Positions 60,130-62,252 of a stretch of 64,000 bases of DNA are shown one piece after another (position 1 is the stretch's first letter; every line of letters starts with the position of its first letter). The notes below the pieces were generated by a model. The model ran no database searches. It saw only the letters and a list, made by a program, of their open reading frames with translations, and had not been told where the DNA came from. The position numbers were made by a program, and so were the translations under genes. The stretch is from assembly GCA_965243835.1 (NCBI GenBank), contig OZ251578.1:2464303-2528302 (forward strand), in the 5' to 3' direction. Source of the stretch: Candidatus Spongiisociaceae bacterium (lineage in GTDB: Bacteria > Actinomycetota > Acidimicrobiia > Spongiisociales > Spongiisociaceae).

Positions 60130-61953
60130 CTAGATAAACCAGATCCCCATCCATTTATCATACAACAGAACCACGAAAGATATAGACACGACAATAGCTA
60201 ATATTATCGATATTACCTGCACAGCCGTTTGGTTTATGCTATTTTCTCTCTCAGGTTCATCAGTAGGCATCTCTCGATATAATCTCAGATCTACAAGGTT
60301 TATAGTCATAAAACATATTCCAGCAGAAAATAGAAAAGCAAGCATATCAATTAATAACGCATTCCAGTCAGAGGTAACGGCAGGTCGGGTGCCCATTGTA
60401 ACCATGATAGTTACCAAGGCAAATATATAGAGTACCAGGTTTTCTGCAAGATATCTACCTCTCTCCTTACTCTTGCAAAGTAGACGAACGTCTAACTCTA
60501 ATTCATGAGCAAATTTTTTGAAATCTTTATCATCATTTTTACTTAATTTCGTAAATAAACAACCAAATTGCTGTCTCAAATTATCAATAGCCGAAGGTTT
60601 AGAAGACTGATCTAGCTTCTCCAGTAGCGGCTTTAGTTTGCCTACCGTTACAGTATCATTATTGATTTCCATCATTCGCGTCACTAACACATTCATCCGT
60701 AAAAATTGATCTTCTTCTTTATTAGTCCTTTCAACTAATCGGGATATTCTAAATGATAATATAAGTATAAATATGGTAGCAGACACGACTATTATAGAAT
60801 AATAATCGACCGATCCAACACCCCATTCCCAAGGTGAGTTATCGGCCAGCCAAGGCCATTGAATCCATTCTTCTCTAAAGTAAGTTAGCACACCTACACT
60901 CCATAAGGATACAATAAGTCCTCTAAAACCTTTCCTACCCGTACGCTCTTCTATAGCTATCAGGATACAAGTGGCAATAATAATTAGAGCCCCTATAATG
61001 AAGTAATCCCATCGTTCCAATTGAGTTAACCCGAAAGGTATTAGCCAAATTATACTCAAGAAAGGAGTTAAGTAATATATACCATTGACATCTAAGGTTT
61101 TGGTTATAAGGTTACCCTCTCTAAAACTCCATACTCCTATACCACTCGCAAAACCACCTACTATACATATTAACCAAGCTATCTCATTCGTAAACCAACT
61201 TGTTTGATTAGTCGTAAAGGTTAAACTCCAGGAAACGCCTTGAAAAATTAAGGCAATTTTCCCTATTATAACCAAAATAATAACAAAGATATTTGCTATT
61301 ATAACGCCTGAAAAAACAAACATCAACTCAATTTTATTGCGTTCCTCATCTCCTAGTTTGTTTAGTTTTTTCTCGGATTCCATCTCGTCCGTCATCTTCT
61401 CAGCCCAATCTAAAGACCTTTCCATTCTAATAGCACTTAATACTACATATACTGTAATCAACAAGAGGCCTATAATGTTAAGCGATGAACTAATATTATT
61501 ATGCGATAGATTAATATAGATCACTCCAATCAAAGCAAATACAAATAGAATCCATACTGAATTGCTCAATTTCAGATCGTCTTTTGATTTTTTCTTAGCA
61601 TAATAACGAAGTAAAACAAAATTCACAATCCAAGTTTCGCCAAGGATAGATGCTACAGCGATATCTAAATAGGCGGTGGACCAAGCGAAAAATAACCAGG
61701 CAAAACCCCCTATTATAACAAACAATAAAGCATATTTATTCCAAAACCCAGGTGGTTTATACCATTGTCTCCGTAGAAAAGAAAACAAATTTACTTTCGC
61801 GTCTATTATATCTTTTTCTACAGATTTTACAACAGTTTTTAATTTAACAGACATCACAATTGTTATACCAATCAAAATTAGTATCACGGACAGTGCTGGG
61901 TTGCTTCTGCTGTTGCTTAATCCAATCGCGAGAGGTACCAAGGAATAACCCAA
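60130..61953 (-). CDS. Polytopic membrane protein of unknown function, very AT-rich (foreign), on a 2.15 kb insertion
   Basis: 607 aa ORF with at least 10 predicted TM helices and a Lys/Glu-rich soluble segment. GC is about half the genome average. An upstream ATG at 62098 becomes in-frame if the C11 run gains one base. Confidence 0.65.
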   Translation of the reverse strand: MGYSLVPLAIGLSNSRSNPALSVILILIGITIVMSVKLKTVVKSVEKDIIDAKVNLFSFLRRQWYKPPGFWNKYALLFVIIGGFAWLFFAWSTAYLDIAVASILGETWIVNFVLLRYYAKKKSKDDLKLSNSVWILFVFALIGVIYINLSHNNISSSLNIIGLLLITVYVVLSAIRMERSLDWAEKMTDEMESEKKLNKLGDEERNKIELMFVFSGVIIANIFVIILVIIGKIALIFQGVSWSLTFTTNQTSWFTNEIAWLICIVGGFASGIGVWSFREGNLITKTLDVNGIYYLTPFLSIIWLIPFGLTQLERWDYFIIGALIIIATCILIAIEERTGRKGFRGLIVSLWSVGVLTYFREEWIQWPWLADNSPWEWGVGSVDYYSIIVVSATIFILILSFRISRLVERTNKEEDQFLRMNVLVTRMMEINNDTVTVGKLKPLLEKLDQSSKPSAIDNLRQQFGCLFTKLSKNDDKDFKKFAHELELDVRLLCKSKERGRYLAENLVLYIFALVTIMVTMGTRPAVTSDWNALLIDMLAFLFSAGICFMTINLVDLRLYREMPTDEPERENSINQTAVQVISIILAIVVSISFVVLLYDKWMGIWFI

Positions 61954-62074
61954 AGTAGCAATAACGATAAATAGGGTAGCCTTAGACTTACCTTTAGGTT
62001 CGTCTCCAGCCTTGCCGCCGCCGGATGCATCGTCGGTCGCACCGGCACTCTGCTTGCTACCTAATTGGGGGTCT

Positions 62075-62085
62075 GGGGGGGGGGG
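62075..62085 (-). repeat. Homopolymeric C11 (G11 on plus) tract between candidate ATG (62098) and the membrane-protein ORF
   Basis: Read directly. C12 would fuse MNNPTPPPPPDPQLGSKQ... in frame to the 607 aa ORF. Confidence 0.9.
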
Positions 62086-62252
62086 TGGGGTTATTCATGG
62101 CGTGTAGATTAACAGGTTAAACGGCAGGGACCGCATCTGTTGGCAGTCCGCTACCTGGGTGCGACTATTCATGTCGTGTACCTGGGTGGGGCGTTTCATG
62201 GCGTGTAGGTTAGCAGGCTAAACGGCTACCCTGTCAAATTGGGGCAGGGCAT

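Follow-up and report, generated by a model that had tools for sequence, protein, structure and literature searches.

What decides whether an AT-rich membrane-protein gene in a high-GC actinobacterial genome is translated? The gene in question lies on the minus strand of a 64,000-nt stretch of DNA, here called the window, from Candidatus Spongiisociaceae bacterium (Actinomycetota; Acidimicrobiia), contig OZ251578.1 of assembly GCA_965243835.1, positions 2,464,303 to 2,528,302. A mechanical listing of open reading frames (ORFs) gives the gene as 607 aa (60130..61953), starting at a TTG that lies inside the first transmembrane helix (TM1). An initial annotation, made from the letters alone, proposed that the start is gated by a C homopolymer further upstream, and this part of the proposal has held: the length of the poly-C tract decides whether an ATG at 62098 is in frame with the gene. 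Taken together, the comparisons described here make it probable that a contingency (phase-variable) gene begins here, with a slipped-strand switch that is OFF (out of frame) in this genome. Four of the five defining features of a simple-sequence-repeat contingency locus were found in silico: a tract in the 5' coding region, length variation among relatives, frame gating, and an intact ORF under selection.

How does the tract gate the frame? On the minus strand, ATG 62098 (62096..62098) is followed by AATAACCCCA and then by eleven C's (62085-62075; G11 on the plus strand), which occupy codons 5-8 after the ATG; the context on the coding strand is CATGAATAACCCCA-Cn-AGACC. With C11, as found, the frame of the ATG reads MNNPTPPPRPPIR before a stop and is out of frame with the long ORF. 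When the tract was rebuilt in silico at each length from C8 to C15, C12 gave MNNPTPPPQTPN and a stop, likewise out of frame, and the full protein was obtained only at C10 (MNNPTPPPDPQLGSKQ...) or C13 (MNNPTPPPPDPQLGSKQ...). The initial annotation had thus placed the C11 homopolymer correctly, although it read the frame as MNNPTPPPP and a stop, and its expectation that C12 would restore the frame of the 607-aa ORF has to be replaced by C10/C13. Off-frame translation stops after 12-13 codons (...PPIR at C11, ...QTPN at C12) because the sequence just downstream of the tract, AATTAGGTAG (62057..62066), gives a TAG in both wrong frames. Translations of the tract variants place one TAG in each wrong frame, and the same stretch encodes QLGS in the gene frame. 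TTAGGTAG is kept in the relatives L005, L008, L009, and L011.

Is ATG 62098 the true start? The membrane-protein frame is open for 650 codons from 62094, and its first ATG, GTG, or TTG codon is TTG 61953. The in-frame extension upstream of that TTG, DPQLGSKQSAGATDDASGGGKAGDEPKGKSKATLFIVIAT (61954..62074), would supply a hydrophilic N-terminus and the first half of TM1. Twenty-two homologues were found, and those with intact 5' ends reach upstream of the position equivalent to TTG 61953. Specifically, the genes or proteins L002/P0003, L005, P0011, P0012, P0055, and P0022 all extend upstream of it, so that a start at the 61953 equivalent, as would be expected if the extension were spurious, is not what the homologues have. 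The window extension KATLFIVIATLGYSLVPLAIGLSNS aligns with the N-termini of P0003, P0007, P0011, P0012, P0020, and P0022. L005 reads MNSSPPQLGSKQSAG... in frame with C7, and its window counterpart would be MNNPTPPP(P)DPQLGSKQSAG...; in both L005 and L006, the same ATG with C7 reads MNSSPPQLGSKQSAGKIDQASGGG in frame, homologous to ...DPQLGSKQSAGATDDASGGG of the window. The L002 gene begins at the corresponding ATG, in its copy of the conserved motif (MNTTPVHVGTRQATLYF; protein MNTTPVHV...), and has no tract, and the distant family member P0055 has the N-terminus MDNPSPPPD. ATG 62098 is therefore the ancestral start codon of the membrane-protein gene, from alignment with the starts of intact homologues. 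The suspicion that TTG 61953 is an artefact was well placed, with the real N-terminus at ATG 62098 and the TTG within TM1. An AlphaFold2 model of the 654-residue frame has a helix at residues 34-59 (pLDDT 82-91), and TTG 61953 corresponds to residue 48. Public and gene-caller products are N-terminally shortened in the same way: P0001 (NCBI-sourced) has 574 aa and P0002 has 555 aa. A start at TTG 61953 or at the ATG of P0001 therefore costs part or all of TM1. For annotation, this means that the listed proteins (574, 555, and 607 aa) lack part or all of TM1, and that the real product would be made from ATG 62098 at certain tract lengths only.

Is the tract a chance run or a property of the gene family? 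Counts of G/C runs of lengths 6 to 11 in the window are 93, 22, 4, 0, 0, and 2, such that the two 11-mers are outliers. A first-order composition model, evaluated analytically, would allow ~1.4 G/C runs of at least 11 nt per 64 kb. The decisive evidence is recurrence: a chance origin is disfavoured because a tract lies at the equivalent place in homologous genes on 10 other contigs. In the syntenic relatives, the flanks are 92-99% identical to those of the window, yet the tract lengths, starting with the window, are C11, C12, C7, C12, C11, and C14. The window (C11) and L001 (C12) would be in frame at 10 or 13 and are both OFF. In L005/L006, L008, and L009/L010, the in-frame lengths are 7, 10, and 13; L005/L006 (C7) are ON at the poly-C tract, and L008 (C12) and L009/L010 (C11) are OFF. 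L011 has C14, is in frame at 12 or 15, and is OFF. L002/L003 have no tract and are intact. Assemblies from the European Nucleotide Archive (ENA) and from Logan, which seem to derive from shared samples, concur on C7 (L005/L006) and C11 (L009/L010). Three diverged alleles (L012-L014; 52-57% amino acid identity) sit at two other genomic positions, AT-rich within flanks of ~67% GC, and in each of them the tract lies 10 to 36 nt after the ATG. They carry C14 (in frame at 13 or 16), C12 (11 or 14), and C12 (10 or 13), respectively, and all three are OFF. Because diverged alleles at other sites carry the tract just after the ATG, it can be regarded as a conserved feature of the family. The initial annotation had suggested slipped-strand phase variation, and the tract does differ in length among related strains, as such a switch predicts. 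Among the eight alleles with a tract of at least 11 nt, four need a −1/+2 correction and four a +1/−2 correction. The need for corrections in both directions fits random length drift rather than directed recoding.

In some alleles, the part of the gene that encodes the central hydrophilic loop holds a second homopolymer, G13-G16. In L005 (2938-2951) it is G14 followed by TG, and in L006 (2215-2230) it is G16; the total length is equal and both are out of frame. In L009 (5247-5259) it is G13 and in frame. The L007 contig opens (1-8) with a short G run, GGGGGTGG, just 5' of the conserved ...GATAATACTTCGGATG that follows the tract elsewhere. As a separate observation, the L004 contig starts (1-40) within an 18-nt tandem repeat, CAACCTGGGAATGAA CAACCTGGGAATGAAG..., in the N-terminal loop of another allele, and this is another repeat where an assembly broke.

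If the gene is out of frame in so many strains, is it still maintained? Each OFF allele has 647-669 open codons down to a conserved C-terminus, LLYDKWMG(I/V)WF(I/L), and the 647 codons of the window allele, in 33%-GC DNA, are free of any other stop or frameshift. Nei-Gojobori dN/dS is 0.35 for the window vs. L001 (both OFF), 0.33 for L008 vs. L009, and 0.29 for L012 vs. L014, within an overall range of 0.21-0.35. The OFF alleles are not decaying; they are under purifying selection. At the same time, nucleotide identity between strains is 70-79% for the membrane-protein gene (60130-62074) and 92-99% for the flanks (58347-60101 and 62298-63599). With divergence so much greater in the gene than in the flanks, the locus is hypervariable between strains and is a hotspot of allele replacement or diversifying selection.

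The other 11-nt run of the window is also inside a gene. On the coding strand it is a G11 (43086-43096) that interrupts the gene of an HmaB-like DUF1156 DNA-adenine methylase at the DPFSGGG S-adenosylmethionine (SAM)-binding motif (motif I), leaving two minus-strand genes, 43456..43037 (139 aa) and 43056..40729 (775 aa). The two fragments cover positions 8-116 and 163-961 of the PADLOC HmaB profile, and G10 or G13 would restore the frame of the methylase. Many methylase homologues in databases end by a frameshift right after DPFxGGG, in both wrong frames, among them homologues from contigs of Mb size and named proteins of Mobiluncus, Thermophilibacter, and Acidimicrobiia. The closest homologue, P0181, is frameshifted as in the window. 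This may be a widespread phase-variable defence methylase. The methylase tract, and not the membrane-protein tract, can be compared with phasevarions: a G11 lies inside an adenine methylase and splits it at motif I. The difference is that the window methylase belongs to an Hma-type defence family rather than to the Type I/III mod genes.

How is the membrane-protein gene transcribed? A promoter-like module (62207..62237, minus strand) consists of a −35 TTGACA (62237-62232), a 19-nt spacer ending in TGC, and a −10 TAACCT (62212-62207). The TG 1 nt before the −10 makes it an extended −10, and the −10 lies 7 nt 5' of an ATG at 62199. The pattern TTGACA-N17-19-TANNNT-N6-8-ATG has one match in the 64-kb window vs. 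0.00 expected. Each of the 12 related loci in which the 5' end is covered has a single TTGACA-N18/19-TAnnnT-N7/8-ATG, always at the start codon of the gene, and the same geometry of promoter and ATG is found at the gene starts of L012-L014, despite their otherwise different surroundings. A generic promoter scanner with a spacer limit of 16-18 nt did not call the conserved promoter, which has a 19-nt spacer and a 3/6 match at the −10. The promoter claim is accordingly based on conservation across loci, not on the scanner. On inspection, the sequence from the −10 to the ATG shows no purine run that resembles a Shine-Dalgarno site. The membrane-protein mRNA is probably leaderless, with the −10 lying 7-8 nt from the ATG and no Shine-Dalgarno sequence. 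Leaderless transcripts are common in Actinomycetota, and in Mycobacterium roughly one transcript in four is of this type.

The window's copy of the conserved promoter now serves ATG 62199 rather than the gene's own ATG. ATG 62199 opens an upstream ORF (uORF), MKRPTQVHDMNSRTQVADCQQMRSLPFNLLIYTP (62095..62199), whose TGA (62097-62095) overlaps ATG 62098 as ATGA (62098-62095). The initial annotation had described this uORF and its overlap as they are, but counted 36 codons where there are 34 plus the stop. The uORF shares its frame with the long ORF, with one TGA between them. Readthrough or recoding of this in-frame TGA was considered and rejected: in L001 (C12), the uORF and the long ORF are in different frames, and TGA terminates ordinary genes of the window, such as the DUF4143 gene. 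Where did the uORF come from? It is confined to the window and L001 because only these two carry a 101-nt duplication (their genes are 96.6% identical); all other alleles have one module. A 43-nt repeat has its second copy at 62083..62125 and its partner at 62184-62226, 101 nt away and 86% identical. The second copy has a degenerate −10, TGTTAATCT, no −35, and the ancestral start codon. A 27-nt tandem duplication of the start-codon module, CACGCCATGAAACGCCCCACCCAGGTA / CACGACATGAATAGTCGCACCCAGGTA, lies at 62152..62207 (Tandem Repeats Finder: period 27, 2.1 copies, 82% matches). The uORF opens with codons (MKRPTQVHD; ATGAAACGCCCCACCCAGGTACACGACA) similar to the L002-type start (MNTTPVHVG; ...GGTACGCGGCA), and the middle copy of the module, ATGAATAGTCGCACCCAGGTAG, resembles an L005/L008-type start with a collapsed tract. 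We read the leader as what duplication or allele replacement has left behind at the 5' end rather than as a designed leader peptide. Termination-reinitiation at the ATGA could plausibly let the displaced ATG be reached in this strain.

A contingency locus of this kind would work as follows. The AT-rich cassette would bring a gene for a membrane protein of ~650 aa, with its own promoter, into a high-GC genome, and a leaderless mRNA would start at the promoter-proximal ATG. Slipped-strand mispairing would alter the length of the hypermutable poly-C tract, which lies 10 to 36 nt after the ATG, and one-third of lengths would keep the ATG in frame. In the wrong frames, the downstream TAGs would end translation after about a dozen codons. 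Here, C11 would be OFF, and C10 or C13 would be ON, with a product that starts MNNPTPPP(P)D and has a poly-proline N-terminus. In the window and in L001, the duplicated promoter-proximal ATG would open the 34-codon remnant ORF that ends at the ATGA, and the real ATG would be reached by termination-reinitiation or via the weak second −10. We infer the reversible switching within a population, the leaderless transcription, the coupling at the ATGA, and a selective agent (e.g., phage).

Are there other ways to explain a membrane-protein gene that is intact but out of frame? Several findings weigh against a contingency locus. One alternative is a technical artefact, in which the true tract is C10 or C13, the gene is ON, and C11 is a homopolymer miscount in the 3.17-Mb contig. 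The other 11-nt run also breaks a gene, and both tracts need the same −1/+2 correction; a systematic homopolymer miscall would look alike. Long G/C homopolymers are generally known to be error-prone on all platforms, and Illumina assemblies lose reliability where such runs are long. The G tracts of the central loop in L005 and L006 differ at one base, a T/G difference that hints at read errors or heterogeneity. In addition, all eight alleles with a tract of at least 11 nt are OFF, a higher share than the two-thirds that random lengths would give, although four of the eight were picked as truncated-looking (L012, L013, and L014 for their annotated proteins, and the window by the initial annotation); the unbiased subset is OFF in only 4/4. 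However, the independent short-read metagenome contigs, from ~10 samples, have tracts of 11, 12, 12, 11, 14, 14, 12, and 12, all out of frame and in both directions, two assembly pipelines concur on C7 and C11, and P0181 is shifted in the same way as the window methylase to which it is nearest. Even with one wrong count, the tract would stay a variable frame gate across relatives. We consider a miscount unlikely. Another reading is a decaying pseudogene, marked by the frameshift and the displaced start. The gene is OFF by tract length and is also cut off from its promoter by the duplication, and the NCBI-sourced record and the gene callers give just N-terminally shortened products. Against this, the 647 codons carry no other stop or frameshift, dN/dS is 0.35 relative to the OFF allele L001 and 0.2-0.35 across other OFF alleles, and one type of lesion at one tract recurs in every lineage. 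There is very little chance that the gene is dead.

Could the OFF tract instead be the normal or designed state? A low, set level of protein could be made by slippage of RNA polymerase or of tRNA-Pro on the all-CCC run, possibly with modulation by EF-P-dependent stalling at the poly-proline. In a variant of this idea, the leaderless mRNAs of the whole cassette family would carry the promoter-proximal poly-C as a recoding attenuator, perhaps tuned by EF-P, and slippage would be the only route to the protein. If true, an attenuator would explain why every tract of at least 11 nt is out of frame (8/8) while the ORFs are intact and under purifying selection. From established slippage mechanisms, a run of 11-14 C's would be expected to allow perfect re-pairing of tRNA-Pro in any frame and to be longer than the RNA-DNA hybrid. 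However, four alleles would require a −1/+2 shift and the other four +1/−2, so no single programmed shift fits. The TAGs in both wrong frames directly after the tract leave a very short window for slippage, L005, at C7, and L002, which lacks a tract, are clearly in frame, and no stimulatory structure or Rfam element was found. The excess of OFF alleles is itself statistically insecure once ascertainment is counted. Set-level slippage is decidedly improbable, and we give the attenuator variant a similarly small chance. The initial annotation had combined phase variation with a multilayer regulatory leader, in which a functional uORF peptide, three regulatory sites with CATG, and translational coupling act together. 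The ATGA overlap of stop and start is real, and the uORF is probably translated because it starts at the conserved promoter-proximal ATG. The three copies of TACACG(C/A)CATGAA (62094-62106, 62168-62180, and 62195-62207) are real as well, and over-represented: the TACACGMCATGAA motif has three matches vs. 0.03 expected from shuffles. Yet they are duplicated pieces of −10 and start codon, accounted for by the 101-nt and 27-nt duplications, and not iterated operator sites; the latter were rejected as candidates, since single-copy relatives have just one. The uORF and its motifs are found as a set only in the window and in the 97%-identical L001. A single module without a uORF is seen in five further syntenic alleles and in three distant ones, such that the uORF is absent from L002, L005, L008, L009, L011, and L012-L014 and has no conserved position as a leader. 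Its opening codons resemble what would be left of an L002-type gene start. An Rfam scan of 59500-64000 at E ≤ 1 gave no match, hence no known riboswitch or leader. A functional regulatory leader is thus hardly to be expected here, and it is the slipped-strand contingency gene that we favour.

How does such a gene compare with known systems? Translational phase variation by poly-G or poly-C tracts is known from the poly-G genes of Campylobacter jejuni, from Neisseria genes of the lgt/opc type, and from outer-membrane and lipopolysaccharide (LPS) genes of Helicobacter pylori. Within Actinomycetota, homopolymeric tracts have been described in Mycobacterium tuberculosis (the glpK 7C tract) and in Cutibacterium acnes (PMC4746626, PMC10334774). 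The locus described here shares with homopolymeric contingency loci a G/C run within the opening codons of a gene that is membrane- or surface-associated and has an otherwise intact ORF, a length that differs among close relatives with one-third of lengths in frame, and a similar tract in a defence methylase of the same genome. It differs from them in that the host is an uncultured, high-GC, environmental lineage rather than a host-adapted pathogen, that the tract sits on an AT-rich single-gene cassette with its own promoter and a probably leaderless start, that some alleles have two tracts, and that reversibility is a prediction. Programmed slippage or frameshifting on homopolymers is known from the A9 of Thermus dnaX, from transposases of insertion sequence (IS) elements, and from +1 slippage of tRNA-Pro at CCC-N. 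The likeness to these systems is a long homopolymer of proline codons between a start and an out-of-frame body, with most alleles out of frame. Here, unlike in programmed slippage, the direction of the shift varies, stops follow at once in both wrong frames, in-frame alleles exist, and no stimulatory element was found. With the leaderless mRNAs of Actinomycetota, the gene shares a −10 located 7-8 nt before the ATG, the lack of a Shine-Dalgarno sequence, and a geometry kept across diverged alleles; it differs in that the start in the window has been captured by a duplicated remnant ORF, and the start is a prediction from sequence. The mechanism, then, is a known one. What is unusual is its setting: a tract borne on a cassette, a probably leaderless start, and an environmental family that is uncharacterised.

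What are the functional implications? Homopolymer contingency loci have been documented mainly in host-adapted pathogens, and the same logic would apply here in an uncultured environmental lineage. A hypervariable, mobile, AT-rich cassette shares 64 kb with a defence methylase split by a tract. The membrane protein is probably under strong fluctuating selection, for example as a phage receptor. What kind of protein is it? An N-terminal 10-helix domain resembling the drug/metabolite transporter (DMT) superfamily is followed by a C-terminal membrane/helical domain. The AlphaFold2 model has a mean pLDDT of 65, with 70-90 over the N-terminal domain. In a Foldseek search against the PDB, the N-terminal ~350 residues matched YddG (5i20; probability 1.0, E 4e-5, TMt 0.72), and further DMT matches were the triose-phosphate transporter (TPT), the CMP-sialic acid transporter, and LicB (5y78, 6i1r, 7b0k). 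The N-terminal half is predicted, with moderate structural confidence, to have a DMT-transporter fold. The likeness to the DMT superfamily (YddG, TPT, nucleotide-sugar transporters, and LicB) lies in this predicted 10-helix fold. The window protein differs in having no Pfam EamA match, an extra C-terminal helical domain of ~270 residues, and only 9-16% sequence identity to solved DMTs. Pfam, NCBIfam, and PADLOC gave no family for the window protein, and Pfam gave no match, including none to EamA, for three distant family members. Scans of JGI metagenomes gave no match for a DNA pattern spanning the tract or for protein patterns, and scans of GTDB genomes gave no match for the protein or for the DNA of the direct repeat that bounds the cassette. 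The family is large, with 973 cluster representatives at E ≤ 0.001, and it becomes a tractable candidate for study.

The cassette itself is a ~2.2-kb AT-rich block with a single, horizontally acquired gene, bounded by direct repeats. The gene body is 31-42% GC and the rest of the region is 62-78% GC. The downstream copy of the repeat (60062..60104) overlaps the stop of a convergent pabB-pabC fusion gene, pabBC (58347..60101, plus strand), and the upstream copy (62250..62293) duplicates the 3' end of that gene. Named PabBC homologues are from Acidimicrobiia/Actinomycetota, at no more than 62% identity. The repeat is perfect over 32 nt (62262-62293 = 60073-60104) and, allowing one indel, reaches ~44 nt; the window has no copies of it beyond these two. 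The same repeat-bounded arrangement is found in L002 (4906-4949 / 6941-6984) and L005 (2113-2142 / 4243-4272). In L014, at a different position, the cassette repeats (2531-2558 / 4852-4879) duplicate the end of a PolX-like convergent gene. The cassette-bounding repeats are 28-44 nt long, are site-specific, and copy the 3' end of the convergent neighbour. They are far longer than ordinary transposon target duplications, and there is no recombinase inside the cassette. The upstream neighbour is a DUF4143/AAA_14 ATPase gene (62298-63599, minus strand) with a match to PDC-S01, a candidate defence family in PADLOC (E 1e-82). This gene and the HmaB-like methylase 20 kb from it lend the region the flavour of a defence island. 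Just 5' of this gene, at 63626-63798, is a 23-nt tandem array, ATTACAGCACCATACGCACACCC, with 7.5 copies and 94% matches, in a patch of ~52% GC. Other low-GC patches (42-58%, against a background of ~68%) lie at ~1000-2000, ~6000-7000, ~18000-19000, ~21000-25000, and ~42000-43000, and these may be other foreign insertions.

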